Sequence record: NC_054895.1
Source: Escherichia phage vB_Eco_SLUR29
Reading direction: 5' to 3' (one strand)
Length of the DNA: 48,466 bases
Part shown: piece by piece, positions 4,714-43,845 of the stretch
Layout: the number at the start of each line of letters is the position of its first letter
Numbering within the stretch: the first letter of the stretch is position 1
Program-made: the position numbers and the translations under genes
Notes under the pieces: model-generated
What the model was told of the DNA's origin: nothing
Database searches by the model: none
What the model saw: only the letters and a program-made list of their open reading frames with translations

Positions 4714-4962
4714 TCAGTAACAATCATTAACGTGAATCAGCACGGAAAAACGACACTTGCGTAAGCGGTGGCGCTTCTTGACGTACATATAAGCATCGCT
4801 GTAATACTTAAATTCAGTGGCAATGATGCCGAAAAAGTCGTCTGTAACATAGTGCCAATTGCCTCCTAAGCTGCGTCGCTGCACATGATAAGTAGAACAG
4901 TCTCGGCAAAATACGATCCGGTATTCCGGCTTAAACAGTCGTTTCAATGCGTTAAAAACCAT
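4714..4962 (-). CDS. hypothetical Cys-containing protein (82 aa)
   Basis: ORF with GAGGG SD; CRDC and additional Cys residues suggest possible metal binding. Confidence 0.5.
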   Translation of the reverse strand: MVFNALKRLFKPEYRIVFCRDCSTYHVQRRSLGGNWHYVTDDFFGIIATEFKYYSDAYMYVKKRHRLRKCRFSVLIHVNDCY

Positions 4963-5061
4963 AGTAGCGCCCTCATGCTATAAAGAAAAAGTAGCATTGA
5001 TAATACCGCAATCATTGCGGAATGAAAATCAAAAGGTGGCTTAGGATTCGTTGCGTTATTG

Positions 5062-5442
5062 TTATTTCCCAGCATTGCGCGCGATCCTCTTGTAACCATA
5101 GTAGAAATCATCGCCTACGCCACGGAATTTTAACGCGTTACGCGCCAGGCGGCGGATTCGACGATTATCCAGTTTGCCGTAATTGGTTGGCGCTTTAATC
5201 GTCTTGATTGGGCAGCCGCGATGGTTAGTGATTTGCTTGAGGGTAGCAACAATACCATCAAGCGAACGGATAGCGAAGCCGCCGAATCCAAGATCTTTAT
5301 TGATTAGATAGCCATTGATGCCAGGGATTCCGAATCTTTTGCTATCAACCTTAACAATCTGGCCCTTCTTCATTCCGCTATCTGGAATTGCGTAAGTAAC
5401 TAAGAATTTAGTGCCGACGCGAATTTTTCTGATGTTAACCAT
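5062..5442 (-). CDS. hypothetical protein (126 aa)
   Basis: ORF with AGAGGA SD. Confidence 0.55.
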   Translation of the reverse strand: MVNIRKIRVGTKFLVTYAIPDSGMKKGQIVKVDSKRFGIPGINGYLINKDLGFGGFAIRSLDGIVATLKQITNHRGCPIKTIKAPTNYGKLDNRRIRRLARNALKFRGVGDDFYYGYKRIARNAGK

Positions 5443-6501: not shown

Positions 6502-6761
6502 TTATTTTCTCCCTCTACTACCAGCGTGTAAAGCAATTCAGGATCAATCATGTTGCGGCGGCGTGGCTCTCGTGGCGAATCGGGCCATGCGCATTTTCCG
6601 TTTGACACAATATAGCCTACCAGGTCACTAAGTTTTGAGATTCCATCTCGACGGATAACGTCGTACCCAATATCCTTGCCGTCAATAGAATGGATAGCAA
6701 AGAAGCTAGGCTCGCCGTCGATAACGTCCACCGCTTTAAAAAACTCAATCTTGTTAGCCAT
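6498..6761 (-). CDS. hypothetical protein (87 aa)
   Basis: ORF with GAGGA SD; first gene after repeated element at 6818. Confidence 0.55.
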   Translation of the reverse strand: MANKIEFFKAVDVIDGEPSFFAIHSIDGKDIGYDVIRRDGISKLSDLVGYIVSNGKCAWPDSPREPRRRNMIDPELLYTLVVEGENK

Positions 6762-6817
6762 GATTTAATCCTCGTTTGTTGTTTATGGGCTTACTATACC
6801 GCAAGCCCGATAATCTG

Positions 6818-9891: not shown

Positions 9892-9947
9892 ACGATGCGC
9901 TGCTGATTGGTATAGTAAGCGCATCGACAACAAACGAGGATTTAAAG

Positions 9948-10145
9948 ATGGAAAATCAGGTTGATGTTAAAGTTGTTAAGCGCGACAAGTCTCACGAAAA
10001 AGGTTTGTTTAAGAAAGGTGCTGAAATCACCATTGACCTTGATGATATGGAGGCGTACCACTCAGGGCTAACTTGGAACGTTCGCAAATGTGAAAACGGC
10101 CTGTTCAAGTTAAATGGCTTTGAAACATACATGGAGATCATTTAA
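9948..10145 (+). CDS. hypothetical protein (65 aa)
   Basis: ORF with GAGGA SD. Confidence 0.55.
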   Translation: MENQVDVKVVKRDKSHEKGLFKKGAEITIDLDDMEAYHSGLTWNVRKCENGLFKLNGFETYMEII

Positions 10146-11358: not shown

Positions 11359-12075
11359 ATGACGATGTATAAAGGTTTAATATTCTCCCTATTTGATGGA
11401 TCTGGTAAAGCCGTTAAAGATTGGGCTGATAATGGCTATAAGTGCATTTGCTTTAATGCTGACGGCGGCGATCACGGTGATTACCAGTCAGTGCGCATAC
11501 AGCATGAGAATATCGAATACGTTAACGTCTGGATTGATGAAAGATTTTACCACCGCGCGCGCTGGGAGGAATGGGGCATTCCTGACTTTATTATGGCATT
11601 TCCGCCGTGCACTGACCTTGCAAATAGCGGATCTCGCCATTGGGCCAAAAAACGCCTTGAGAATCCATCTTTCCAGGATGAGGCCGCCGACACTTGCAGG
11701 ATCGCGGCTGATATAGCTGATTATTTCGGTGTTCCTTACATGATCGAAAATCCGGTTGGCAAGTTGTCAACGTTATGGCGAAAGCCTGATTATACGTTCC
11801 ATCCGTGCGATTACGCTGGCTATCTGCCGGAAGATGATAAACATCCCGACTTCCCTGATATTATTCCGGCGCGGGATCGCTATTTTAAGAAAACATGCCT
11901 CTGGACTGGCAACGGCTTTGTTATTCCTCCACGCGCTTTAATCCTGCCGAAAGAGAAAGACAAAGATAATCCAGGCTGGGCCAAAACTGGCGGCAAGTCA
12001 TCGCGCACAAAGATGATCCGCTCCCTCACTCCGCGCGGCTTTGCTCGCGCCGTCTTTGAGTCAAACTCAAAATAG
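11359..12075 (+). CDS. DNA (cytosine-5)-methyltransferase-like
   Basis: motif I FSLFDGSG, PPC catalytic-Cys motif (FPPCTDL), ENP/ENV-like motif (MIENPVGK); TAG stop lies inside next 19-mer element. Confidence 0.65.
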   Translation: MTMYKGLIFSLFDGSGKAVKDWADNGYKCICFNADGGDHGDYQSVRIQHENIEYVNVWIDERFYHRARWEEWGIPDFIMAFPPCTDLANSGSRHWAKKRLENPSFQDEAADTCRIAADIADYFGVPYMIENPVGKLSTLWRKPDYTFHPCDYAGYLPEDDKHPDFPDIIPARDRYFKKTCLWTGNGFVIPPRALILPKEKDKDNPGWAKTGGKSSRTKMIRSLTPRGFARAVFESNSK

Positions 12076-12531: not shown

Positions 12532-12749
12532 TAAACAGTGAAAACCGTTACAAAGTAACGAATTCTACCACAAAGACTTTCAAGCCTGGCGATATAGTCA
12601 GGCCCATCAAAAAAACGGCGGTAGGTTGGCTGATTGGTTTTTCATATCATAAGGCTCTTTACTTTACGTTTAAGGATGGGATCATGGGGGAATGCTATAG
12701 CGACCGCCATCCTGATCGACTTCTGGTTGCAATAGAGCGGATCAAATAG
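12528..12749 (+). CDS. hypothetical protein (73 aa, probable GTG start)
   Basis: GTGA overlap with upstream stop; TAG stop inside next 19-mer. Confidence 0.45.
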   Translation: MINSENRYKVTNSTTKTFKPGDIVRPIKKTAVGWLIGFSYHKALYFTFKDGIMGECYSDRHPDRLLVAIERIK

Positions 12750-12817: not shown

Positions 12818-14398
12818 ATGTTTTCATTAGAAACGAACAAATTAACTCCACAGCAAATAATCGCTATGGCTGAAAGCCAGAACCTTTCACCAGTTCGCGT
12901 ATCAATTCAGGCTAACGGCTATCGCCAGTCGTCCAGCTTTTGGGGCGACGTAAAGGATGTGAATAGCGGTCACGATCGCTACCCCGTTATTTCTCTTGGT
13001 AATGATATTGATGTTGTCGGCAAGTTATCACGCAGCATTGCGCGATCCGTTCAATTCCCTGAATCATCGGCTTACATGCACTTTATCGGCTGCATTTCTG
13101 CCGCTATGCTTGGACGCTTTACGGTTGACTATCACGGAACCGATCAGCCGACTGCGCTTTACGTCGTTACAAGCCAGCCGCCGTCAACTGGTAAATCTGC
13201 GATCAACAGCATGGCTATTGCTCCGATGATTGCGGAAGTTGAGAAGATCAACGAGCAACGCCGCAAGGAAAGAAAGAAAATACAGGCAAAGCTGGCAGGT
13301 CTTGCAAAGGAGATGAAAAGCGAAAGATCCGGCGCTGATATGGAATCTCTATACCAGGAAAAAGAGGATCTGGAGGAAAAGCTGGAAAAAATGTGTGATA
13401 TAACTTTTCCTGTTTCAGATACAACTCCAGAAGGCTTGGCGAAAATCAACAACAAGCAAGGTAACTTTGCCGTAATTTCTGATGAAGCAACAAGTATTAA
13501 CAGTCTGTTAGGTTTGACCTATGCAAATAGCGAAAGGAAGACTAACAGTGAGTTAGTGCTTAAGGCGTGGGATAATGGTCACGTATCAATTGCCCGTGCT
13601 AATGCTGACAATAATATGAGTTTTCGCGCGCTTGGATGTATGAGCGTTATAGCCCAGGATGAAACGATAAGCGGAATCATGGACGCTGGATCGCGAGGCA
13701 TCGGTGTTAGTGAGCGTTTTTTGTTGGTCCGCGAGGAATCATTCTTAGGCCGTCGCTCATTCATTGATGAAAATGGTGATTCTACCTATGAGGCGGTGGA
13801 TTCTGAATTGAAAGCCCAATATTATCAATTGGTGCATAACATCATGAGCGAATCAAATATATCGCTGAAAATAAGCCGTTCAGCTATGCGAGTGCTCAAC
13901 ATTGCTCGCCAGGATATGGAACCGCATCTTGCAGACGGCGGAAAGTATTCTCATACAATGTTACGCGGTGCGCTTGGTAAAATGGATAAACAGGTGATCA
14001 GGCTTGCTTCCGTCCTGCATGTTATCCGTAACTGGTTTAATCCTGCCGGATACCCGCAGAAGTCGAAAGAGATCGACGTGGAAACAATGCAAGAGGCGTT
14101 GATCATGTTTCAGGAATTGAGCAAAACATACATTAGCGCCGCCAATGCTTCTGGTTATGCTGGTGATGATGCTGAAATGGGTAAATTGATTGAATTGATC
14201 ACGAGGCACGGCAAGGCTAACAAAGGGATCCTGAATATTCGCGCCCTGTACGAATCAGCGAGAAAGGTAAAACCTTTCGTTGGTCAGGCTGGCGTAATGA
14301 AAAGGATAGAAGGGCACTTACTGCCAATGCTGGAAGAAAGAAATTATGTTTGTGTGATTAATGGTGTTATTTTTGTCAATCCAATACTGCTGGGATGA
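12818..14398 (+). CDS. P-loop NTPase of unknown function (526 aa)
   Basis: Walker A-like PPSTGKSA and Walker B-like FAVISDEA; strong SD; function not assignable by eye. Confidence 0.7.
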   Translation: MFSLETNKLTPQQIIAMAESQNLSPVRVSIQANGYRQSSSFWGDVKDVNSGHDRYPVISLGNDIDVVGKLSRSIARSVQFPESSAYMHFIGCISAAMLGRFTVDYHGTDQPTALYVVTSQPPSTGKSAINSMAIAPMIAEVEKINEQRRKERKKIQAKLAGLAKEMKSERSGADMESLYQEKEDLEEKLEKMCDITFPVSDTTPEGLAKINNKQGNFAVISDEATSINSLLGLTYANSERKTNSELVLKAWDNGHVSIARANADNNMSFRALGCMSVIAQDETISGIMDAGSRGIGVSERFLLVREESFLGRRSFIDENGDSTYEAVDSELKAQYYQLVHNIMSESNISLKISRSAMRVLNIARQDMEPHLADGGKYSHTMLRGALGKMDKQVIRLASVLHVIRNWFNPAGYPQKSKEIDVETMQEALIMFQELSKTYISAANASGYAGDDAEMGKLIELITRHGKANKGILNIRALYESARKVKPFVGQAGVMKRIEGHLLPMLEERNYVCVINGVIFVNPILLG

Positions 14399-14790
14399 TT
14401 ATGTTTTTGCTTGATCTGTATAAATGGTGTGAGTCATACGATTGGTTTAACAGGCAGCACATAGCCAAATTTATCTATCAGCATAGAGAATGTGAGCGGC
14501 TCGCACGGGCCGCCGGACTTACGCCGCGAATGTTCGCCAGCCTTGCATCTAAGGAATTTTGCGCAAGAATGATGACGGCTGGTTATATAGATGGAGTCTG
14601 CGGAAAATACTGGTCCAAAGGATCGTCAAAGCGGCCTTTCGGATTCGAATTGTATAGCCTGGATGGTATGCGCAACGACTGGATCAGGGATATGGCTAGA
14701 ATAGGGGAGATGGGCGATGATGAATTGTTCCAGGCAAAAGCTAATAGACAAGATCTTGAAGCACTGCGCCGTAAATTCAATCTCACATGA
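14395..14790 (+). CDS. hypothetical protein (131 aa)
   Basis: ATGA coupling to upstream NTPase gene. Confidence 0.5.
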   Translation: MIMFLLDLYKWCESYDWFNRQHIAKFIYQHRECERLARAAGLTPRMFASLASKEFCARMMTAGYIDGVCGKYWSKGSSKRPFGFELYSLDGMRNDWIRDMARIGEMGDDELFQAKANRQDLEALRRKFNLT

Positions 14791-14911
14791 GGATTTTATT
14801 CATGCTTTACTTACGCTACTTTATTCAGATATGCGCGCTTTTAGCACCACTGAACATGTTTTATGCAATGATGATGGTGTATTACTGGTTACGGTAAAGC
14901 GTATGGAATAG
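14717..14911 (+). CDS. possible overlapping small ORF (64 aa)
   Basis: GGGGAGA SD 6 nt before ATG; TAG stop is the TAG of the next 19-mer element, as for other cassette-terminal genes. Confidence 0.3.
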   Translation: MMNCSRQKLIDKILKHCAVNSISHEDFIHALLTLLYSDMRAFSTTEHVLCNDDGVLLVTVKRME

Positions 14912-14926
14912 CATTTTTTGTTAAAA
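14908..14926 (+). promoter_or_regulatory. conserved early element, copy 6 (ATAGCATTTTTTGTTAAAA), stem-loop CCCGGC/GTCGGG
   Basis: near-exact 19-mer; TATATT after hairpin; CATCGAAACGAAAC leader; inverted duplicate of copy at 18151..18169. Confidence 0.6.
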
Positions 14927-14988
14927 CGCCCGGCCTAGTGTCGGGTATATTTGTTTCATCGAAACGAAACAACCAAAAAGGAAAAATT

Positions 14989-15213
14989 ATGTCCAGCAAG
15001 TTTTTAGTAGTTCGCGTATACAATCATGCAAATGGATCTTCTTCTGAAATCCCGACAGTTTACGATAAGGATTCAGGCTGGAGTGAGCAATCGGCGGTTG
15101 AAAATGAGCGCAAGATTGCAGGACTATACGGCGACACTTGCAGCATTGAAGTAAGGAAGTACGACGAATCGAACAAGCCAACAAACGAAAGCCATATGTG
15201 GCCCGACGCATAA
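14989..15213 (+). CDS. hypothetical protein (74 aa, MSSKFLVV...)
   Basis: ATG at 14989 after A-rich leader. Confidence 0.5.
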   Translation: MSSKFLVVRVYNHANGSSSEIPTVYDKDSGWSEQSAVENERKIAGLYGDTCSIEVRKYDESNKPTNESHMWPDA

Positions 15214-15245
15214 AAATAAAGGAGGCGTTAAGCCTCCTTTTTCTT
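15214..15245. terminator. bidirectional intrinsic terminator between convergent operons
   Basis: hairpin GGAGGC-GTTA-AGCCTCC flanked by A-run and T-run. Confidence 0.6.
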
Positions 15246-15623
15246 TTCTATCCAGTAAAGACAAATCAGCACAAGAAACACAACCACGCATATGATTACT
15301 GGATCGTACCATCTCCCGTTATTACGCTGCACGACCTGAATTTTGTCTGCCTTGATGGTATTGGCCTGAATGGTTGATGTTGTGAAATCCTTCTTGCTGG
15401 ACGTGTCCACCTTGTCAACCGCAGATTCCTTTATTGTGGTTTCCTGTTTTGTGCTGGCGTCCTGCCTTGCTGTAATGCCAACTGTCTGCTTCACGTTCTC
15501 CGCGCCAGCCTGCGCTGTGATTTCCGGCTTACTGCCGATTAATCCGGTCAGTGGCGTAACGCTTGAACATCCAGACAAGATCACCGCCATTGCGATTGGT
15601 GTAAGTAAAAATTTCTTCATCAT
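15228..15623 (-). CDS. unimolecular spanin-like lysis protein
   Basis: N-terminal lipoprotein signal (LSGCSS) plus C-terminal TM helix ([16 protein letters not shown]); last gene of lysis cassette. Confidence 0.55.
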
Positions 15624-16111
15624 TTAAGATCCATTGTGCAATATTTGTATTCGACCTTGCGCCTGTTAAGCAAGCCTTTAGACTTCTCTCGCTTTCCTGT
15701 TTTTGGGTTATGGTAATAAGTCCAACGATAAAGCTGATCGCAAGCCTCGTTTAATTTCCCCTGGTTGATGAGTTTCAGCATTGTTGAATTTCTGAAAGCT
15801 CCCACACCTGCATTATAAGTGAATGAGTACATGGCTGCACGCATACTATCGGGAATGTCAACCTTAACTTGCTTGTCAACTTCTTTTTTAGCAACCTGGA
15901 TATGTTTAGCCAACAAAGCATCACACTCTTTTTTAGTGTACGTTTTCCCCAGGATAACATCGGGTCCGGTGATTCCTGCGCAAACCGTCCATACTCCCGC
16001 AATATCTTTGTATGGCTTGTATCTTACCCCTTCGATCTCTTCAAGAAGTGGAGAAGTCAAGGCAACCGCAACGCCAAAGGCCGCCGCCGCTACCCTGTTC
16101 TTTATGCTCAT
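15620..16111 (-). CDS. SAR endolysin (GH24 lysozyme)
   Basis: Gly/Ala-rich N-terminal signal-anchor-release segment; catalytic E-8-D-5-T triad ([16 protein letters not shown]). Confidence 0.8.
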
Positions 16112-16326
16112 TACTTGCCCCTGATCTCAATAGCTTTTTGAATATCACCTTTTTCGATCGCCTCGTGGAATTTTTTACTATCACGCCAGCGAAGGTAAGC
16201 GCCCCACGCACCGAATGCAGCCATTAAAACAAAACTGGCAATAGCAATGGTTAACTGCCCTGTAGCGGCGCTTGCGATAGATGAACCGCCAGATCCGGCG
16301 GTAGCTGCGTTAATAAAATCTTTCAT
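16111..16326 (-). CDS. holin (pinholin-like, two TMDs)
   Basis: 71-aa protein with two hydrophobic segments and charged C-terminus; ATGA coupling to endolysin. Confidence 0.6.
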
Positions 16327-16471
16327 TTTTATTCTCCATATTAATTAAAGTCAATATATTGACCGCATGATAAACGCACATGGTAAAAAATTAAACAAAA
16401 AAAAGAGGCGACAAACGCCGCCCCCTTGCAAGTTTTTGATTTAATTTGTCATTGATTTAAATAAAAATTCA

Positions 16472-17587
16472 TCAATTCATCATTTCTGGATAGTGAACAA
16501 ATCGCCCCACTTCTCCATGCTCTTTGTCGTAAATGATAACCGCCGCACGGCGTCGAGATCTCCAGCCACCTCGCGCGGCGTATGCGTCTTTTGCAGCCAG
16601 GGTGCTATGCACCTCAACGATGCCAAGCGACGTTTCTGTCACGGTCTGGTGATGCCAGTGCCCTACGTGCGCATACATCGTTTTTGAGTTTCCGAAGTCC
16701 TCCCGCCAATCTGACGCGCACATCATTAGCAAAGTCTCCGGTTTACGCACTGTGTGCCCGTGATGGTACGCAAGGAAAGTTTTTCCGTATTGCGTGTGGT
16801 GCACAACGCGAGGGGAAACATCAACGTAAACGCGCGGCTCGTTTTCATATGCTGCCGCCATTGCTGCGCGTAGCCAAATCATTCCTGATTGGTCATGATT
16901 GCCCTCTACGATCTGGACTTCAACATGTTTATGCTTTAACAACATTTTATTGATTGCGCGTCGCATTGCACGGATGGCAACGTAAACCAATTTTGCATAT
17001 CGACTATCTTGATCCAGTACGTGACCGCTTGCAGGTGTAACCGCCTCCAGGCCGTCGCTATGCAGCATATCGCCACCAATCAGGATGACAGCCTTTTCGC
17101 TATCCGGTGCGCACATTAAAGCATAGTCGATAAAGTTATTCATAACGCGCTCTGCCGTGGCAGTATCCCAATTTTCGCCGCATTCGTGCTTATGGGCCAT
17201 AGCGCCTAAGTGCATGTCAAAGATCGGATACAAGGAAAGCGTTTCGTTATAGTCGCGCTCCTGTAATGGGACCGGATCTAATCGCGGAACTTCCTCGCTA
17301 AATGCCTCCATTGCTGCGCGCATTAATGCTTCTAATTGCTCTTTATCCTTGCTGGTTTTAGTCCACTTTAGGATTATGTTGCCTTCTTTGTCAGTCATTA
17401 CTGACTCACCATGAACGCCAAAACCAGGCGCTCCAATGGTGGATACCTGGCCTTGCTTTGCAAGACGCGCCGCGCGACGCTCGACGCTTCTCACATTCAT
17501 TCCGTACTCTTGAGCGATCTGTTTATATGTCTTACCAGCCGCCCGTTCGATCTTGAATTGCTCATCTGTAATTTTTACATTTTTCAT
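16472..17587 (-). CDS. calcineurin-like metallophosphoesterase with N-terminal HTH domain
   Basis: motifs DMHLG, GGDMLHSDG, GNHD, GHWHH; N-terminal HTH-like KTYKQIAQEYGMNVRSVERRAARLAKQ; start taken at internal ATG 17587. Confidence 0.65.
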   Translation of the reverse strand: MKNVKITDEQFKIERAAGKTYKQIAQEYGMNVRSVERRAARLAKQGQVSTIGAPGFGVHGESVMTDKEGNIILKWTKTSKDKEQLEALMRAAMEAFSEEVPRLDPVPLQERDYNETLSLYPIFDMHLGAMAHKHECGENWDTATAERVMNNFIDYALMCAPDSEKAVILIGGDMLHSDGLEAVTPASGHVLDQDSRYAKLVYVAIRAMRRAINKMLLKHKHVEVQIVEGNHDQSGMIWLRAAMAAAYENEPRVYVDVSPRVVHHTQYGKTFLAYHHGHTVRKPETLLMMCASDWREDFGNSKTMYAHVGHWHHQTVTETSLGIVEVHSTLAAKDAYAARGGWRSRRRAAVIIYDKEHGEVGRFVHYPEMMN

Positions 17588-17681
17588 TCTGCTACCTATC
17601 TCATCACTATATGGTACATAACTGTAACAGCGATGATAACGGGTAACGGTAGAACAAACAAGCGCCACATGATAACTATCC

Positions 17682-17924
17682 TCATTTATAATATTTGCGA
17701 GGCTCTCGGATTTTAGCCATTGCCTCTTTGAAATCAATTTTTGTTGGAACTGCTGGAACTCTTACCATTTTTCGCGGCCTTTCCTTGAGGAAAGTCATCT
17801 TGTCGCCGCTAATTATGCTCACATCTGCAATATCAAAGTATTGCGCGATCTTCTTTATGTCGTCGGCAATACCGCATTCTTTAGCGTGATTCCATACCGC
17901 ATCTCTTCCTTGCTCAACCTTCAT
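17682..17924 (-). CDS. hypothetical protein (80 aa, MKVEQGRD...)
   Basis: ORF; GAGGAGG upstream; overlaps stop of preceding small ORF. Confidence 0.45.
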   Translation of the reverse strand: MKVEQGRDAVWNHAKECGIADDIKKIAQYFDIADVSIISGDKMTFLKERPRKMVRVPAVPTKIDFKEAMAKIREPRKYYK

Positions 17925-18093
17925 GCTTATAATATGCCTCCTCTTGTTCAATTGGTGCGTGACCGTATGCAACTTTCAGTAAAAACATTGCGATCTCCCA
18001 ATCAAACTGGAATCCTTCCTTTGAACCGCCATCCACTGAACCTTTTGCCACCTCTTGAGCAAGATTAAAAGCGCGTTTATCGAATACTACCAT
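17914..18093 (-). CDS. small hypothetical protein (59 aa, MVVFDKRAFN...)
   Basis: GAGGA SD; first ORF downstream of 19-mer element at 18151. Confidence 0.4.
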   Translation of the reverse strand: MVVFDKRAFNLAQEVAKGSVDGGSKEGFQFDWEIAMFLLKVAYGHAPIEQEEAYYKHEG

Positions 18094-18150
18094 TTTTATT
18101 TCCTCATGTTTGTTTCGTTGAAATAATTATGCCCGACACTAGGCCGGGCG

Positions 18151-18169
18151 TTTTAACAAAAAGTGCTAT
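18151..18169 (-). promoter_or_regulatory. conserved early element, minus-strand copy; inverted duplicate of copy 6
   Basis: reverse complement is ATAGCACTTTTTGTTAAAA followed by identical hairpin CGCCCGGCCTAGTGTCGGG and CATAAT; contains TAG stop of gene 18166..18405. Confidence 0.6.
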
Positions 18170-18405
18170 TTGATCGCTGAATCGTAAAATTCTTGCAGGT
18201 CTTTAGCAATTATTTCATGCCATTTTTCAAGAGGATGTTTTCTAGTTTCCTCAAAACTCATATCCAGGCAGCCGGAAAACTCCCACAAATCGCAATCAAT
18301 ATATGGCTTAACGAACGAATTTTTTTCCATACAGTCGCACACCATAGCGCGATATAAAAGAAATTCGCCATCCTCATTAAGTAAAACGCTTCTCTCTTTT
18401 TCCAT
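18166..18405 (-). CDS. hypothetical protein (80 aa, MEKERSVLL...)
   Basis: GGAG SD; immediately downstream of Dam gene. Confidence 0.45.
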   Translation of the reverse strand: MEKERSVLLNEDGEFLLYRAMVCDCMEKNSFVKPYIDCDLWEFSGCLDMSFEETRKHPLEKWHEIIAKDLQEFYDSAIK

Positions 18406-18409
18406 CGTA

Positions 18410-19135
18410 TTAACTCCGTTTGCGTGCTCGGCGTTCGGTAACAGAAGGACAAATATCGCTGATCTTAACGTATCGCGTTTTCTGCTCTTCGCCTTCTTTA
18501 AGTTTACGCATGACAAAAATCACGCTCCCCTTATTGTTGCCCTGTACAGGCTCGCCAGTCAATCCAGACACAAAGGCGATTCTTCCGGTGCGGGAATATT
18601 CCACTCCCCCCTCTTCGTAAACCTCGCCAGTGATCCAGATGATTTCAGCCGCGTTTTTCTGCGCCTCATAAAACCATGCTGTAGAGTTGTCGGATGGCAA
18701 CAAAACATCAATTTGGTTGTTGTGCTCCATTTGCTCAATTGCTTTCTTGATAAATGGAGTTGGGTTGCTGTACGGCGGGTTAAGCCATACGTGCTTGTTG
18801 CTACCCCACCAACGCTTTAAGCAGTTTGTTTCCTTGCTATAGAACTTCTCGCAAACTGCGTTTTCCTGGCTTGCTGCCGCGTCGAGATCGTATTCGCCAA
18901 ATTCTGATTCCATCCACTCCACGATCTCTTGAGGTGTGCTCCACATATCGCGCACAACGTCCGGCGTAGTGCTTCCAGCGTATCGGTTGCCGCTTACCTT
19001 ATAATATTGATTTGGCTTTACTGCCTGGTAATGGCCTCCAGTTGCAAGGGCATTCCCTATAAATGTTTCTCTCTCCAACTGCTCAAAGCTAACGAATGCG
19101 TCATGGGTGTCTTTATCTAAAATATCTTTAGCCAT
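18410..19135 (-). CDS. dam: DNA N6-adenine methyltransferase (Dam-like)
   Basis: NPPY catalytic motif (WLNPPYS); 241 aa; GGAGA SD. Confidence 0.75.
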   Translation of the reverse strand: MAKDILDKDTHDAFVSFEQLERETFIGNALATGGHYQAVKPNQYYKVSGNRYAGSTTPDVVRDMWSTPQEIVEWMESEFGEYDLDAAASQENAVCEKFYSKETNCLKRWWGSNKHVWLNPPYSNPTPFIKKAIEQMEHNNQIDVLLPSDNSTAWFYEAQKNAAEIIWITGEVYEEGGVEYSRTGRIAFVSGLTGEPVQGNNKGSVIFVMRKLKEGEEQKTRYVKISDICPSVTERRARKRS

Positions 19136-19199
19136 TTCATTTCTCCGCTATTAAAAGCTATCTCGTGTTATTGAATTATGGCGCAATCCATCGCGCCAG

Positions 19200-19218
19200 T
19201 TTTAACAAAAAGTGCTAT
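19200..19218 (-). promoter_or_regulatory. conserved early element, minus-strand copy, with stem-loop GGCGC/GCGCC
   Basis: reverse complement exact 19-mer followed by hairpin and CATAAT; contains TAG stop of 19215..19634; precedes Dam. Confidence 0.6.
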
Positions 19219-19634
19219 TTAAGCATGTATTCAATAGCCAACTTAAACTGATTAAATCCGTAGGCGACCGCAGCGAATCCTCCTAAGCTGCGAACTCGAC
19301 GCAAAAAAGCCCTTTGTTCATCGCTGACTGGTGATGCTTTACCATTGCCTGATTTATTCACTCGTTTGATCTCAATCGCTGCAAATGGGTATTTTCCGTT
19401 TAAACCAATCAGGATGATGAAATCGCTTACACCCTTAACCAAGCCGGACTGCTGATCAATCATCGCCGTTGCTTTAGACTTCTCATTCTCGTTTACCGTA
19501 TGCCACGCCAGCAAGTAAGGATGAGTATAAGTCAACCACTGAAAGCTATCTATCTGGTGATTAACTTCCTTTCTAGTGTCGGTTGGATCTCTTTCGTAAA
19601 ACTCAAGATAATCTCCTTTATCAGTTATAGCCAT
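19215..19634 (-). CDS. VRR-NUC-like PD-(D/E)xK nuclease
   Basis: 139 aa; D...E.K signature (GVSDFIIL...AIEIK); adjacent to helicase as is common for VRR-NUC. Confidence 0.55.
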   Translation of the reverse strand: MAITDKGDYLEFYERDPTDTRKEVNHQIDSFQWLTYTHPYLLAWHTVNENEKSKATAMIDQQSGLVKGVSDFIILIGLNGKYPFAAIEIKRVNKSGNGKASPVSDEQRAFLRRVRSLGGFAAVAYGFNQFKLAIEYMLK

Positions 19635-21718: not shown

Positions 21719-22195
21719 ATGAAAGATGCACGAATTGCGGTGTCTACGGGTGAGATCGACAAGCGCACTATTAACGGTAACAACGGAACGCGACGAGGTA
21801 AAGACAAAAAGCCACGAAAACACCGAACCGGATTTCTTATCCTGCGAGATGAGGTAAAAGCAAGCCTGAAATCTCGCTTGGATATTCTGATCGAGTATTA
21901 TGGCGGTGTTCCTGCTATGGCTCGACGTCTACGCGTATCTCAGCAAGTCGTTAACCAATGGCGAAAGCGTGGTATGATTTCAGCCGCTGGAGCACAAAAG
22001 GTGCATAACGACTACAAATATAATGGATGCAAAGGATACCGCGCATCATTTTGTCGTCCAGATCTGCGGTTTGATTCTAACGGTAAGCCTCTTACTACCC
22101 GTTGCGACAAATACGAGATGTTGCGCGTAGTCAAAAATTCAGACTACGAACCAGGCGGACGATTCTACAAAGGTGATAACAGCACAAATAGCTAA
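21719..22195 (+). CDS. HTH DNA-binding protein (Cro/YdaS-like)
   Basis: HTH-like GGVPAMARRLRVSQQVVNQWRKRG; GAGG SD. Confidence 0.6.
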   Translation: MKDARIAVSTGEIDKRTINGNNGTRRGKDKKPRKHRTGFLILRDEVKASLKSRLDILIEYYGGVPAMARRLRVSQQVVNQWRKRGMISAAGAQKVHNDYKYNGCKGYRASFCRPDLRFDSNGKPLTTRCDKYEMLRVVKNSDYEPGGRFYKGDNSTNS

Positions 22196-23250: not shown

Positions 23251-23269
23251 CATTAGCAAAAAGTGCTAT
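23251..23269 (-). promoter_or_regulatory. degenerate copy of 19-mer element (16/19), reverse orientation relative to adjacent + gene
   Basis: CATTAGCAAAAAGTGCTAT directly upstream of SD of tail fiber gene. Confidence 0.4.
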
Positions 23270-26810: not shown

Positions 26811-27467
<657 letters not shown>

Positions 27468-27800: not shown

Positions 27801-28856
27801 TCACAGATACTGCCTGAATTGAGCACGGACCCAATCAGGAGTATCAAGATCAATTTCTGGCTGCCCGTTTGCATACGAAGGCCATTCATCTAACTGTTGG
27901 CAAACGTTGAACTTGTTGATCACGCTCATGTACTGGATACGCCCGATCTTCAATTGCTCAATGTTCATGCGGAATGCGAGCGGCAAGTAAGGCTCTTTCT
28001 TCTCTTGAGCAAGCAATCTCACAATTACTGGCCTTTCCTCGTCTGGATACGCCTTTTTAAATAAATCATGCTGCAAAGCCATTTTGAGATAATAGCCGTG
28101 ATTGTAAGCTAGGCGCTGGAAGTCAACCGGATTTGCGCTAACCGTTGTTTTATAGTCAGTGATAATCACAGCTTCTGGATAGATGACTTCTTCATAAATC
28201 GGTCGGCCTTTTTCGTCGTAACCGTTAATGATTGTGGCCTTTACATCCTTGTTTACGTCAACGTGATCAAGGCGCACTTTAACTTTTACGCCATTGATGA
28301 TCCCGAATATTGACATTTCACGCTGCGCGGTTGGGCTATTCATGCAAGCATTATGCTCAGGTATTGCCTCAAGTACGCGCCGCATCGCTACACAGGCATC
28401 ATAATCTTTCGCGTCGATTAACTGCACGCCGTCCGCTGCGGCCTGGCATTCTGCCATCATTTCGATAAGCCACCATACATTGAGATCCTCACCGCACTTG
28501 TACAGCATTTCCAGCAATTCTGGATATTGCTTACCCGTTGTACCTTTCAGGCCAAAAGATTTCAGCTTTGAGGCTAACGCCGTTTGACTTGTGATCAGAT
28601 CTTTAAAATCATCCTGCGACGGTGCGCGGCGATATGTTTTTTCGAATAACTCCTTGCTTTCAAAATTGGTATGCGACTGCGTACCGAAAACAAGTGCCTT
28701 AGTTTCCTGGCGAGGCTTGTACTTCCAGTACGCCGGGCAAGTGCTGTAAATCTCCGCCAAGCTGGAACCGCTGACGTATTCAGCCGTCCACGCGTTAGGA
28801 TCATGATAAAGCTCATTGCTCATTTCTTCGCTAGTGTAGGCGTTAAAATCACTCAT
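27801..28856 (-). CDS. PD-(D/E)xK exonuclease (RecB/YqaJ-like)
   Basis: 351 aa; ...VIITDYKT... D-x-K motif; first gene of operon with Erf and SSB; strong SD. Confidence 0.6.
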   Translation of the reverse strand: MSDFNAYTSEEMSNELYHDPNAWTAEYVSGSSLAEIYSTCPAYWKYKPRQETKALVFGTQSHTNFESKELFEKTYRRAPSQDDFKDLITSQTALASKLKSFGLKGTTGKQYPELLEMLYKCGEDLNVWWLIEMMAECQAAADGVQLIDAKDYDACVAMRRVLEAIPEHNACMNSPTAQREMSIFGIINGVKVKVRLDHVDVNKDVKATIINGYDEKGRPIYEEVIYPEAVIITDYKTTVSANPVDFQRLAYNHGYYLKMALQHDLFKKAYPDEERPVIVRLLAQEKKEPYLPLAFRMNIEQLKIGRIQYMSVINKFNVCQQLDEWPSYANGQPEIDLDTPDWVRAQFRQYL

Positions 28857-35529: not shown

Positions 35530-36290
35530 TATTGATTCCTCCGTAGCAGTGACGCCACCGCGCAACCGCCGAAATCCAACTCGTTTTGCTGACCGAATCT
35601 CAATTTGCAAGCCGTTACAGTTCCGGCGCAATAGTCTTGTGATGGATCTGTTACTGGCTTATTGTCTTTATCGAACATTGCCGATCCGTTATAAGAGCAA
35701 CCCTTTCCGCTCCTGTACCACCCCCTTTGCGCCCAATAGCAGACGCTTTGAGTGATGCGCGGCGGGATCATTAATCCATCCATATCGTAAGGCGATGTTA
35801 GATCAAATTTCGCTATCTCTCTATTGTACTGGCTTGGGCGCTCAATGTAATAAACCAATTTTCTGTAAGCGCCATCTTTGATTGCTCCGCCTTCTCCGAT
35901 AAATTCCTTTGCCGTTATCCAGAAAGTCACCTTTGCTTGCATCATGCCATTGTAATTTCTGATCATGGCGCTCACCCTGCTGTCAAGGTTTGACACTATA
36001 AGCTGAGGCTTATCTGCCCTGCCGTTACTTGTGAAGTTAATACCGCTCACACCGAAAGGCCGCGCTCCGTAAACCTCACCCTGAAAAATAATATCTTTCG
36101 GCGGCAATATTCCGGTTTGCTGCGCTTGCATTAATTCTTCGGCAGTATAAGAGATGTTCTCATTGTGAAATCGGTAAATATTTGCTCCGAACTTCGTCCC
36201 GTCAATCTCTACAAGCGTTATAATTTCGCCTGGGTACAAACTTTGTAGGCAGTTCTCAAATTCAACTCTACCTGATTCTTTATTAGCCAT
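35529..36290 (-). CDS. minor tail protein L-like
   Basis: 253 aa; C-terminal Cys cluster (CYWAQRGW..C..C); synteny. Confidence 0.75.
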   Translation of the reverse strand: MANKESGRVEFENCLQSLYPGEIITLVEIDGTKFGANIYRFHNENISYTAEELMQAQQTGILPPKDIIFQGEVYGARPFGVSGINFTSNGRADKPQLIVSNLDSRVSAMIRNYNGMMQAKVTFWITAKEFIGEGGAIKDGAYRKLVYYIERPSQYNREIAKFDLTSPYDMDGLMIPPRITQSVCYWAQRGWYRSGKGCSYNGSAMFDKDNKPVTDPSQDYCAGTVTACKLRFGQQNELDFGGCAVASLLRRNQ

Positions 36291-36709: not shown

Positions 36710-39387
36710 CCTCTCTTGCTCATAACAAATTCGTAAACCTCGCCGCCCTGCATACAGGAACGTTTAATCATATCAGTAAAGATCATCTTAACACCAGTTT
36801 CGATGCCCTTCGGATCGTTTCCGTTAGTGATGCTAACATCAATCCCGCCGATGTTAAATTGAGGTGCTCCACCAGTTACAGCGCCACCGCCAGTATAGCC
36901 GGAACTACCAACAACGCCGCCGTTAGCATAGCCTCGCATCATGCGGTACAAGTTTCCTACCCCGATACGCTGCGTCGCCTCCTTCGTCATGACAAATTCA
37001 CCTTTATGGACAATTCCGGCTGGCTCATACTTCCCGCCGTCGCCAGTGTATCCACCGCCAGCAAATCCGCCAATATTCTTAAGCAAGCTCCCCATCGTCC
37101 AGGTTTGACCACCCATCAGGCCAGATAACGCATTAAAGACAACCATTTTCGTAATCATCTGAATAATCATTTTGATGATAGCCGTCGAGAAGTCTTTAAA
37201 GTTTGCCTTGCCAGTAGCGATAAAATTCGCTAATTGGTTTGTAAGGCCGTTTAACGCCTCGCTTGCGATCTGCTGAACATTGCCATAGGCATTGTTTGCA
37301 TCTTCCGCGAACATCTCCCATGCGTTTTTTGCTCCTGCCAACCAGTTGCCTTGAACCTCATCCTGTGTCTGATAATACTGCTTAAGTTTCGCCTCCATTT
37401 GCTGAAAAACTTCATCGCTAACGCTTCCGCCTTGCGCCTCGTAGTCGGTGCGCAGCTTGCGTAACTCTAGCTCACGCTCGATCTGCTTTTCAGTGTAGCC
37501 AAGTTGCTTAAGGCCAAGCACATCAATAGCCGCCTGAGTTTCACGGATAAACTTAATGCTATCTTGCTCCAGCTTGTTTTTGCGCTCCTGTAAAACAATC
37601 TGATCCCCTAGCTCCGCTTTTTGCCTTGCCATTTCAAGAACGGCTTTTTGCTCGTTTAGTAGCGCCTGTTCCGCTCCGGTCAATTTACGCTTGCTCTGCG
37701 CTTCCTCCAGGATCTCGATCTGCTTTTCGATACTCCATAATGATTTACGCTGGCGAGAAATAACATCGTTAACAGTGCGATGCTCTTTAAGCATCTCCAG
37801 TTGCGCTTTTAAAACGTACAACTCTTTATCAAGCTGCTCAGTCGGGCCGCGAACTATTCCACCTTTAGCCTCTTTCTTTTTCTGCTCCTGCTTCTTGATT
37901 TCCTCAAGCTCTTTGCGCCTAAACTCCACGTTTTCAGCCGCGCGCTTTTTCAGTTCTTCATCAGCCGAACGCGCCACATTTTTCTGATCCTCAATAGCTT
38001 TGTTTAAAGCCTCCTGTGCTGCGCGCACTCTGTTTAAGGCCAGGTTTTCTTTGTCGATTCGCTCCGCTCGTTCCGCCATGTCCTTATTCGCATCTTTTAC
38101 GACCTTTCCAATGTCTTCATAAGTGTTAAGTGCAAACTTAAGCATAGGGTTAACATAGCCAAGCTCCTTACCTAACAGGCCGCCGGACGGGGAAGCGTAA
38201 TCACGCTTCGCTTTCAAAACCTCATACCACGAATCGCCCAACTCAAGGACTTTGTTTTTGTGGTTTGCAATTTCGTTATTCAAGCTGACAAAGCTAGACG
38301 CGCCCTTGTACTCGTTGACTTTCTTTTTTGCGTCATCATAAGTCATGCCAACGTCAACCAGTTTTTTAATCGCCTCGCTCGCGCCGTCTTTCGTGGTGAT
38401 GTAAGCCTTTGCAAGATCTTCGGCGCTTTCGCCTGTCTTGTCGGAAAGCTCCTGTATTCCGGTAGCAATCTTTTCGGCAAAATCACCAGTCAAGCCAGTT
38501 GTTTCCTGAACGGTTTTTTTAATTGCCTCAAACTCTGTCTGTGTTTTGTAGGCATTATATGCAGCAATTGCCAGCGTACCGGAAAGCAAGCCAAACGCCA
38601 CGTTTACCGGATTCAGGAAAGATAGCAACGCTTTTAAAGCATTGGATGCGCCACCAAAAGAATCCTTAATCTGTCCGCCCTGCTGGATTGCGACCAACCA
38701 AACAGGCATTCCAGAAGCAAGTGAAGTCACCACGTCTGTGATCTGCATTGGCAATTGCGCCATTGCTTGTTTGTATTGGCCCGTAGAAATTCCAAGTTTT
38801 TGGATCTGCTTTTCCTGCTCTTTCAGCCTTGCGATGTAAGGCGCTGCCTCCTGGCTAACACCAAGCTGTGCCGCTTTCATTTCCAGCAATTCAGACTTGC
38901 TTTTTCCGGCTGCTTCTTCCTGCTCACGCAAAGCCTGGACGAATTTTTTAGCCTCTTCCGCTGCACGCGCTTTGTTCTTTGATTCCTCAAGCGCCGCGCG
39001 GCCTTCCTCCGTCATCGCTTTTTTTGTTGCGATCAGCTTGTTTTGCTGCGTCTCAAGAATTGATCCAAGCTCAAAAAAAGTCTCATCAGGAACAATGCCC
39101 TTTTTCCATAGCGCATCAAGCTGTGTCGCTGCCTTTCGCAGCTTATCCATCTTTGACGCGGTGGGATCAATTGACTCCTGGATTTTCTTAAATTCTGCTT
39201 TCTGGCGCGCCAGTTCTTCGGCAAACTGTTTTGCTTGCTGTCGCGCCACAACCTCAGAATCAACAAATTCATTAACGCTTTTTTTTGCGTCGTCGTTTGC
39301 CTTCTTGAATTGCTGCAATGATTTAACAGCATTGTTGACCTGCGACACGTCAACGCCTAGCGTTAGGCCAGCGTATTTTTCAGCCAT
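36706..39387 (-). CDS. tail tape measure protein
   Basis: 893 aa, long coiled-coil-rich, Gly-rich C-terminus; follows G/G-T chaperone. Confidence 0.85.
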   Translation of the reverse strand: MAEKYAGLTLGVDVSQVNNAVKSLQQFKKANDDAKKSVNEFVDSEVVARQQAKQFAEELARQKAEFKKIQESIDPTASKMDKLRKAATQLDALWKKGIVPDETFFELGSILETQQNKLIATKKAMTEEGRAALEESKNKARAAEEAKKFVQALREQEEAAGKSKSELLEMKAAQLGVSQEAAPYIARLKEQEKQIQKLGISTGQYKQAMAQLPMQITDVVTSLASGMPVWLVAIQQGGQIKDSFGGASNALKALLSFLNPVNVAFGLLSGTLAIAAYNAYKTQTEFEAIKKTVQETTGLTGDFAEKIATGIQELSDKTGESAEDLAKAYITTKDGASEAIKKLVDVGMTYDDAKKKVNEYKGASSFVSLNNEIANHKNKVLELGDSWYEVLKAKRDYASPSGGLLGKELGYVNPMLKFALNTYEDIGKVVKDANKDMAERAERIDKENLALNRVRAAQEALNKAIEDQKNVARSADEELKKRAAENVEFRRKELEEIKKQEQKKKEAKGGIVRGPTEQLDKELYVLKAQLEMLKEHRTVNDVISRQRKSLWSIEKQIEILEEAQSKRKLTGAEQALLNEQKAVLEMARQKAELGDQIVLQERKNKLEQDSIKFIRETQAAIDVLGLKQLGYTEKQIERELELRKLRTDYEAQGGSVSDEVFQQMEAKLKQYYQTQDEVQGNWLAGAKNAWEMFAEDANNAYGNVQQIASEALNGLTNQLANFIATGKANFKDFSTAIIKMIIQMITKMVVFNALSGLMGGQTWTMGSLLKNIGGFAGGGYTGDGGKYEPAGIVHKGEFVMTKEATQRIGVGNLYRMMRGYANGGVVGSSGYTGGGAVTGGAPQFNIGGIDVSITNGNDPKGIETGVKMIFTDMIKRSCMQGGEVYEFVMSKRG

Positions 39388-39754: not shown

Positions 39755-40062
39755 ACCCGCTGCCCCGCAAGTGCTTTCATATAATGACCAGTCAGCGATA
39801 ATGACGCAGACGGGTAATAATCCAGCAATTTAGCAACGTTTTCCTCGTTAAATTCATCTTCCAGATCCCAACCGGAAGCAAGGAAGGTGATCATTTCTAC
39901 GTCGCTCATCGGCTTTTCTGCCGTGTATCGTTCGTGAATTTCGCTTGCCTTCTTGTGGCGCACGGTAAAAACAATAACTTGCTCATCACCATTTGGAAGC
40001 ACGAAAGAAACAGGCAGCTTAAAATCAGGCAGTGGGCCTAACGTTAGTTTCATCTTTGCCAT
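39745..40062 (-). CDS. tail assembly chaperone G-like
   Basis: 105 aa between major tail and tape measure genes; AAGGAG SD. Confidence 0.65.
   Translation of the reverse strand: MAKMKLTLGPLPDFKLPVSFVLPNGDEQVIVFTVRHKKASEIHERYTAEKPMSDVEMITFLASGWDLEDEFNEENVAKLLDYYPSASLSLTGHYMKALAGQRVKN
39748..39754 (-). other. putative -1 programmed ribosomal frameshift slippery heptamer A_AAA_AAC
   Basis: last codons of G are GTA AAA AAC TAA; X_XXY_YYZ pattern in frame; analogous to lambda G/G-T. Confidence 0.5.
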
Positions 40063-40076
40063 CTTAAGATCTCCTT

Positions 40077-40095
40077 ATAGCACTTTTTGTTAAAA
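40077..40095 (+). promoter_or_regulatory. exact 19-mer copy in plus orientation inside leftward structural operon
   Basis: ATAGCACTTTTTGTTAAAA; TAGATT 22 nt after TTGTTA; about 45 nt before terminator at 40141; its reverse complement abuts SD of G gene. Confidence 0.45.
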
Positions 40096-40132
40096 GTGGA
40101 ATTAATTTATTTGATAGATTGATTTTACAGGA

Positions 40133-40160
40133 ATGAAAAAAGGGGCGCAACGCCCCTTGT
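40133..40160 (-). terminator. intrinsic terminator after major tail protein gene
   Basis: minus-strand GGGGCGTTGCGCCCCT followed by TTTTTTT. Confidence 0.7.
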
Positions 40161-40161
40161 T

Positions 40162-41661: not shown

Positions 41662-42025
41662 ACACAGCAATCCTCCTTAATATCGGACGATAAGCCGCCG
41701 TGATGTTAGTCTGCCTGACTGGTCTTGCTTCAACGACAACATAACGTTCGCCATCAATTTCAATCTGATAACCATTTTTGATCTCAGTTTCATTGGTGAA
41801 TATCCCCAACTTGTCGGTTACTCGGATTGTTTCACCGTCAACCTCTCTAGTTCTAGGGGATCTAACAAGCCCCTTTATCATCACTGAAATCTCCGGCTTG
41901 GTAACTTCCTCTCCGCCGATAATCTCAACTCCGCCCTGCTGCGTGATGCACTTAAACATACCGTTAGCGTCGCTGAAAAAGTTAATCCCAGCCGTAGCCA
42001 TTCTTGCAATCTCATTGTAGTTCAT
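41654..42025 (-). CDS. putative head closure / head-tail joining protein
   Basis: synteny between connector and gp10-like gene. Confidence 0.45.
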
Positions 42026-43826: not shown

Positions 43827-43845
43827 ATAGCACTTTTTGTTAAAC
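43827..43845 (+). promoter_or_regulatory. 19-mer copy (ATAGCACTTTTTGTTAAAC) in plus orientation inside structural operon
   Basis: 18/19 match; TATTAG 22 nt after TTGTTA. Confidence 0.4.

Follow-up and report, generated by a model that had tools for sequence, protein, structure and literature searches.

The 48,466-nt stretch of DNA from Escherichia phage vB_Eco_SLUR29 (NC_054895.1; the whole stretch is referred to here as the window) belongs to a Warwickvirus (Drexlerviridae, Tempevirinae) and contains two nearly identical copies of a short element that face each other across the lysis genes and a phosphoesterase gene. An earlier, sequence-only reading took these copies for a recent duplication whose inverted arms could mediate inversion or module exchange, and the locus therefore raises the question of whether the pair is a recombination switch or two members of a regulatory family that happen to face each other. 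Our analysis favors the second answer, and we consider it likely that the two elements, which we call L (14908–14968, + strand) and R (18169–18109, − strand), are paralogous Drexlerviridae promoter-associated repeats acting as composite terminator/promoter cassettes, with no inversion switch.

The two arms, 14907–14968 (+) and 18109–18170 (−), form the longest inverted repeat of the window, in which 62 nt with 90% complementarity are separated by 3140 nt. Each arm comprises a 19-mer, a spacer hairpin, a −10-like hexamer and the start of a leader. The copies reported at 14908–14946 (+) and 18131–18169 (−) are thus present, and the repeat is longer than had been noted, as it continues past the −10 hexamer into about 20 nt of the leader. 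The single mismatch that had been described in the 19-mer lies at 14914 (T vs C), but the same 39 nt hold a second mismatch at 14946 (T vs C), the first base of the hexamer, and the longest perfect run is accordingly 31 nt (14915–14945). The L 19-mer is ATAGCATTTTTTGTTAAAA (14908–14926, +), which matches the published repeat discussed below; relative to ATAGCACTTTTTGTTAAAA, the 19-mer of R (18151–18169, −), L has one mismatch and R none. What sets the pair apart is the 19-nt spacer, CGCCCGGCCTAGTGTCGGG, which is the same in L and R at 19 of 19 positions, whereas across the 105 pairs that can be drawn from 15 family members spacers agree on average at 5.7/19 positions (sd 2.6), with the runner-up pair reaching 12/19. 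This bears out both the earlier statement that all other copies have unique hairpins and the view that, within one element family, L and R are paralogues with a specific relationship to each other.

The family itself has partly been described before. The sequence aaATAGCACnnnTTGnTAAAA is the 21-nt direct repeat reported for phage TLS, which also occurs in T1, Rtp and Rogue1 and whose function was left open between a stoperator, an enhancer site and an UP element (PMC11447400). Allowing ≤3 mismatches, the window has 15 copies of the 19-mer where 0.05 would be expected, and all 16 copies that we aligned share one architecture, in which the 19-mer is followed by a variable spacer of 19 nt, a −10-like hexamer (TATAGT, CATAAT, TATATT and similar), a leader of about 30 nt, a ribosome-binding site (RBS) and an ATG, with each copy pointing towards the gene that follows it. 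When the survey was extended to 159 unique elements from the window and 38 related loci, TAnnnT was found at the fixed distance in 141 of them, a G at −14 in 87%, and, 6–7 nt past the hexamer, a C in 76% and an A in 87%. The hexamers of L and R are TATATT (14946–14951, +) and CATAAT (18126–18131, −), and the starts predicted from this anatomy, A14958 for L and 18119 for R, place the 19-mer at −50 to −32. The distance from the start of the 19-mer to the ATG is 81 nt for L (14908 to 14989) and 76 nt for R (18169 to 18093).

Several smaller features of the 19-mer accompany this layout. It holds an imperfect palindrome, TAGCA-N5-TG(T/C)TA, centered at about −42 from the predicted start, which is the position of a class II activator, and the window encodes a T1 gp23-like transcriptional regulator (21719–22195, +; phrog_2856, 2e-72) that could, purely as an idea, be the 19-mer-binding protein. 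The TAG within the 19-mer doubles as the upstream gene's stop codon at 14909–14911, 12073–12075, 12747–12749 and 18166–18168, and at other elements a TAA lies directly 5′ of the 19-mer, so that gene end and regulatory cassette are fused. We considered the 19-mer as a sigma54 promoter (AGCAC-N3-TTG compared with GGCAC-N5-TTGC) and rejected it, as the spacing is 2 nt short and the first element has AG rather than GG; the conserved −10 and the CA farther downstream contradict it as well. A literature search for the exact motif string returned irrelevant matches only, and one for Drexlerviridae transcriptomics found no usable data.

Most spacers of the family contain a copy-specific stem-loop, either within the spacer or spanning the −10. 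Those of L and R sit in the spacer and include a G-T pair: the L hairpin (14929–14945, +) has its stem at 14929–14934/14940–14945, a loop at 14935–14939 and the tail ATATTTGTTT, and the R hairpin (18132–18148, −) has its stem at 18148–18143/18137–18132 and the tail ATAATTATTT, both being terminator-like. A terminator scan lists both in sense orientation, at 14928–14946 (+) and 18149–18131 (−), with 7 pairs each, of which 5–6 are G-C, and the minimum free energy of the R hairpin RNA is about −13 kcal/mol. In an alignment of 23 distinct L and R orthologues, 99.3% of the stem cells are paired, compared with 16–50% in controls in which the 3′ arm was slid; two stem pairs show compensatory changes (C-G to or from A-U, and C-G to or from U-A), one further pair alternates between G-U and A-U, and the remaining variation falls at unpaired positions. 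The sense RNA folds more stably than the antisense RNA both among the 16 window elements (p=0.008) and over 146 unique elements (p=6e-9, although these are not phylogenetically independent). A terminator read from the antisense strand, where the hairpin is followed by TTTTAAC, would be secondary at best, because the G-T pairs become A-C mismatches there and the folds weaken.

The distribution of these hairpins points to upstream transcription. Hairpins with z≤−2 were found at all 10 elements that have a co-directional gene directly upstream, but at only one of the six elements located at block starts or facing a divergent gene (Fisher p=0.0014). In addition, the GenBank record of T1 (NC_005833) annotates rho-independent terminators on the spacer hairpins of four family elements (38973–39001, 39998–40024, 41980–42007 and 35930–35971), one of which is the R orthologue and carries the stem CCCGGC/GTCGGG as in R, with the loop GAAA in place of CTAGT; that annotation is not tied to the repeat or to a promoter. 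We infer that the hairpin insulates against incoming transcripts or terminates them, from a position inside the promoter that restarts transcription.

Applied to this locus, the hairpin together with the T-rich −10/discriminator region would stop or trim transcripts arriving from upstream co-directional genes, and the 19-mer and −10 hexamer would then restart transcription. At L the incoming transcripts would come from the helicase and YdbL-like genes (+, ending at 14790), and the upstream open reading frame (ORF) at 14717–14911 (+) has its TAG stop, 14909–14911, within the L 19-mer; at R they would come from dam and a 79-aa gene, which sit to the right of R, the latter (18166–18405, −) likewise ending within the R 19-mer (TAG 18168–18166). 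L would drive a single gene of 74 aa (14989–15213, +; phrog_27210, function not assigned), and R would drive a 59-aa ORF (17914–18093, −), an 80-aa ORF (17682–17924, −) and the DNA-repair exonuclease/phosphoesterase (16472–17668, with the ORF extending to 17737, −; phrog_704), which together span 16472–18093 (−). Both units would end at internal terminators, the first at an intrinsic, bidirectional terminator (15218–15240) located where the convergent 74-aa and spanin genes meet, and the second at a strong terminator with an 11-bp stem and a T-run (16402–16427, −) ahead of the lysis cassette. The lysis cassette (15228–16326, −) consists of a unimolecular spanin (15228–15623, −), an endolysin (15620–16111, −; Pfam Phage_lysozyme, 4e-39) and a holin (16111–16326, −). 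Given the terminator after the exonuclease gene and a sigma70-like promoter match (16354–16325, −) ahead of the holin gene, the cassette is probably a separate, later unit that is not driven by R. The internal terminators thus divide the 3.1 kb into three transcription units instead of one module, and with the mosaic blocks of relatives also being smaller than the interval, the description of the repeats as flanking the lysis cassette as a unit is not supported. L (14908, +) and R (18169, −) are convergent, and they form an inverted repeat only because two neighboring gene blocks converge.

If the pair is ordinary in its function, the perfect identity of the two spacers still has to be accounted for, and here the relatives are informative. 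The region 14000–19500 is closest to Escherichia phage tunus (OR912983; 99.5% identity), and dozens of other Warwickvirus genomes match it at 95–99%. We compared 15 GenBank loci and about 20 contigs from IMG/VR and metagenomes, and found L and R at the same positions and convergent in all examined Warwickvirus and Hanrivervirus loci. In T1 the R orthologue is present and L is absent; L is also absent from vojen and PMBT35. L-type hairpins (CCCGAT-CTNGT-ATCGGG) extend to Stevie- and CF1-like phages, in which the R spacer is unrelated. This orthologous placement across genera means that the duplication is not recent, contrary to what the sequence-only reading had supposed, and the L and R spacers differ by 2–5 nt in many close relatives, including the phage that is 99.5% identical to the window. 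Warwickvirus has three L alleles, L-a (CGCCCGGCCTAGTGTCGGG), L-b (CTCCCGACCTTGTGTCGGG) and L-c (CGCCCGACCTATTGTCGGG), and two main R alleles, R-a, which is identical to L-a, and R-b (CGCCCGGCATTTTGTCGGG); they occur in the L/R combinations a/a, b/a, b/b, a/b and c/a. The likeness of L and R would thus be old, and their perfect spacer identity would represent one allele combination (L-a/R-a) segregating in Warwickvirus.

The origin of L-a can be narrowed further. The three bases that distinguish L-b are common to outgroup L elements, whereas L-a has the R-a base at all three sites, including A11, which is derived in Warwickvirus R, and at the same time retains L's own T7 in the 19-mer and its TATATT hexamer. 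Judged from these three sites, L-a most likely arose by a short non-crossover conversion of L by R, with a tract of 10–31 nt. We considered and rejected the possibility that the difference from tunus OR912983 goes back to a conversion arising de novo within the window's own lineage, as the surrounding patch (14782–14937, with its right end inside L) reflects ordinary homologous exchange, and it is by such exchange that the window's L allele has recently moved. A second inverted pair in the window, at 6745–6800 and 9909–9964 (56 nt, 80%), belongs to the elements 6818(−) and 9873(+), which are divergent and 3.1 kb apart; these have the −10, leader (25/30), RBS and first codons in common but not the spacer. 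The sub-segments held in common therefore vary between family members, as expected if copies exchange patches.

The same alleles bear on the idea that the spacers are alike through selection for identical regulation, with a factor that recognizes the hairpin or palindrome co-regulating the 74-aa gene and the R operon. Such a factor would fit the conserved stem, in which L as well as R shows compensatory changes, and the fact that the L and R spacers are the most alike pair in every Tempevirinae genome that has both. Natural isolates, however, carry every differing L/R combination, including phages 98.8–99.5% identical to the window (both tunus records have L-b with R-a), and spacer identity is therefore not required; moreover, the loop positions vary freely, phages entirely without L exist, and hairpins across the family track upstream co-directional transcription and not a shared sequence. 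We regard co-regulation as unlikely on this evidence.

The idea that the copies are a recent duplication between whose arms Erf/RecE recombination inverts or moves the 3.1-kb segment fares slightly worse, and we consider it distinctly improbable. It has a plausible substrate and machinery, namely a 31-nt perfect run within a 62-nt, 90% inverted repeat, and genes for an Erf annealing protein (26811–27464), as the earlier reading had correctly pointed out, and for a RecE-like PDDEXK protein (27801–28856); T4-type phages recombine at homologies shorter than 50 bp in comparable cassettes (see below); and, because both promoters face inward, each gene would still be served by an equivalent promoter after an inversion, which should therefore be viable. 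Against this, all 126 GenBank records that cover ≥80% of 14400–18600 are collinear with the window on one strand. We also queried with a synthetic inverted left junction composed of 300 nt of left flank, the shared core and 330 nt of R-side interior, and none of the 299 matching records covered more than 58% of it (0/299 with the inverted junction). Likewise, all 13 IMG/VR and metagenome contigs that contain the outer flank of L continue into the L interior (0/13 inverted). The predicted inversion is hence not seen in GenBank, IMG/VR or metagenome consensus sequences, and the comparison with related genomes that had been proposed as a check gives a fixed orientation throughout at the level of consensus genomes. 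The same orientation is kept in T1, Stevie and CF1, even where L is missing or its spacer is unrelated to that of R; the two elements occupy orthologous positions in different genera, and no mosaic block equals the L–R interval.

Nor does the pair belong with the invertible segments of Mu (G), P1 (C) and e14 (P), which are served by the serine invertases Gin, Cin and Pin. The likeness is that short inverted repeats bracket about 3 kb in each case. Unlike those segments, this one has no invertase gene and no alternative gene fusion across the repeat, and both of its arms are ordinary promoters that keep one orientation in all sequenced relatives; when the ORFs within the segment and next to it were scanned against Pfam and PHROGs, the matches were lysozyme, exonuclease and unknown functions, and no invertase or other recombinase was found. 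L and R are thus not a Gin/Hin-type invertible segment. A narrower possibility, to which we would give little credence, is that low-frequency Erf/RecE recombination of the 31–62-nt arms in each infection produces a minority isomer in lysates with 14969–18108 flipped, and since both arms are equivalent inward-facing promoter/terminator cassettes, such an isomer should be fully viable. If it exists, inverted cassettes of this kind might offer virulent phages a general way of inverting segments, alongside the deletions and mini-circles to which directly repeated ones give rise. Finally, a transcript running from arm to arm could by its geometry, as an inverted repeat on one strand, pair into a 62-nt RNA duplex around the lysis genes, which RNase III, for example, might cleave to time lysis, but three terminators, one of them bidirectional, lie between the arms, half of the interval would be read in antisense, and relatives with diverged arms or without L are viable, which makes this highly improbable.

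Recombination has nonetheless left its marks at the elements themselves. The 5′ edge of R, at 18169/18170, is the exact starting point of a divergent block in five phages (JLBYU19, tiwna, tonijn, B1.2 and mar001J1), and this block carries a highly divergent allele of the upstream 79-aa gene; in the same five phages L lies in a 192-nt island with zero differences (14783–14974), past which divergence begins in the leader. In pSf-1 the L promoter and the terminator are unchanged, but an unrelated cargo gene takes the place of the 74-aa gene between them (E=1.0, compared with 2e-16 for the homologue in morffagbaw), and in vojen and PMBT35 the first bases of the 19-mer are fused directly to the terminator, with the cassette lost. 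The 74-aa gene is accordingly variable cargo, replaced in pSf-1 and absent from vojen, PMBT35 and T1. Module exchange, as suggested earlier, is therefore supported insofar as breakpoints, a cargo swap and a cassette deletion abut the elements, but the whole 3.1-kb interval never moves as a unit, and no mosaic block among the relatives coincides with it. The cassettes would thus be islands of conservation where mosaic blocks are exchanged, cargo genes are replaced and deletions arise.

Homing endonucleases are a further source of mosaicism in this segment. In mar001J1 alone, an HNH endonuclease gene lies between the exonuclease gene and the 80-aa ORF (positions 4783–5268 of its locus, corresponding to about 17670 in the window), and in pSf-1 another HNH gene splits the helicase region.

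Several points weigh against our interpretation of L and R as terminator/promoter cassettes. Neither element has a canonical −35 at 16–18 nt (TTGTTA lies 22 nt from the −10), so initiation may need an additional factor, and a scan with the sigma70 consensus made no calls at L or R; promoter and terminator activities alike are predicted from anatomy and annotation. The hairpins are short (6–7 bp), and termination at L and R is probably weak because their U-tracts are interrupted, while other hairpins of the family span the −10 without any U-tract, which means that termination is not the whole story for the family. With regard to history, the proposed conversion depends on three sites, for which the chance alternative is about 1/27, and relative to OR912983 the three differences in the L spacer fall within a patch of 156 nt with 11 differences (14782–14937). 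Lastly, purifying selection alone can produce conserved islands at mosaic boundaries.

The closest parallel is found in another group of phages. Promoter-early stem-loop (PeSL) cassettes of T4-type myoviruses combine a consensus of sigma70 −35 and −10 elements with polyG/polyC stems, stop incoming transcription and mark sites of indels and replacements; their promoter and terminator activity and the formation of mini-circles have been shown experimentally, and T4-type phages recombine between PeSL homologies shorter than 50 bp (PMC2839356, PMC4122927). Set against these published descriptions, L and R resemble PeSLs in having an A/T-rich upstream element that includes the stop codon of the preceding gene, a G+C-rich stem-loop that contains G-T pairs and lies between the upstream box and the −10 or over the −10, a Shine-Dalgarno sequence and ATG that follow the stem-loop and −10, and indels and gene replacements at the elements between close relatives; the fusion of gene end and cassette noted above is likewise a PeSL trait, and the family as a whole, like PeSLs, has many copies in early, ORFan-rich regions. 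The differences are equally clear. PeSLs have a consensus −35 where L and R have the 19-mer at −50 to −32, their hosts are T4-type myoviruses as opposed to a siphovirus family, the PeSL work concerns directly repeated copies that yield deletions and circles as opposed to an inverted pair, and PeSL activity has been demonstrated whereas that of L and R is predicted from sequence. We therefore describe the L and R cassettes as an analogue, not a homologue, of PeSLs. In a literature search for work linking PeSLs to T1-like phages, none of the listed papers with the T1-like or Drexlerviridae terms mentions PeSLs.

Compared with the TLS/T1 repeat, L and R agree in consensus, in orientation to genes, in intergenic placement and in how far they lie from the start codon (about 76 nt in TLS), but the published account treats the repeat alone, without the −10 hexamer at fixed distance, spacer hairpins or covariation, and without a spacer-sharing inverted pair or mosaic boundaries at the elements (PMC11447400). 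The pair itself would be ordinary, a regulatory cassette with many copies that occurs here twice in facing orientation, and nothing points to an inversion switch. The published repeat, by contrast, would gain an anatomy, with a box near −42, a covarying sense hairpin, a fixed −10 and a CA start, and T1-like siphoviruses would be seen to carry PeSL-like cassettes that show mosaic junctions and cargo swaps and whose copies have probably undergone conversion. Both the promoter function of the repeat and cassette-mediated shuffling thereby become testable in a simple 50-kb coliphage.

The gene content between the arms agrees with the list given in the sequence-only reading, as judged from ORFs, Pfam, PHROGs and relatives' annotation, and our gene calls from relatives' annotation and from our own scans are concordant. 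The exonuclease/phosphoesterase is named through PHROGs and relatives' annotation because Pfam gave no metallophosphoesterase match at E≤0.01. Its N-terminus (residues ~55–100) includes a helix-turn-helix that weakly resembles region 4 of sigma-70 (Pfam E=0.002, below the cutoff), and some Klebsiella relatives label the protein as a sigma70_r4 domain protein. In OR912983 the small gene next to L is annotated on the opposite strand (988–1212 of the tunus locus, window 14987–15211); this call is probably wrong, because the + frame of the 74-aa gene has an RBS, a promoter and a 45%-identical homologue in morffagbaw. We also considered whether this small gene is the standalone SH3 gene of the Drexlerviridae lysis module, which position excludes, since the SH3 gene lies between exonuclease and holin in T1 and KanT1 (PMC13164509). 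In those two phages the exonuclease–holin gap holds an HNH gene and the standalone SH3 gene, neither of which is present in this phage, where the 145-nt gap contains the terminator alone. An Rfam search of 14700–18400 at E≤1 gave two sub-threshold chance matches at the bidirectional terminator and none at L or R.

Elsewhere in the window, three family elements of the late region (40077–40161, +; 23251–23269, −; 43827–43845, +) have no downstream ORF. At the first of these a strong terminator (40138–40161) lies about 45 nt past the −10-like hexamer, which suggests a non-coding transcript of about 50 nt, and the same arrangement is found in T1 at 18807–18850 (−).

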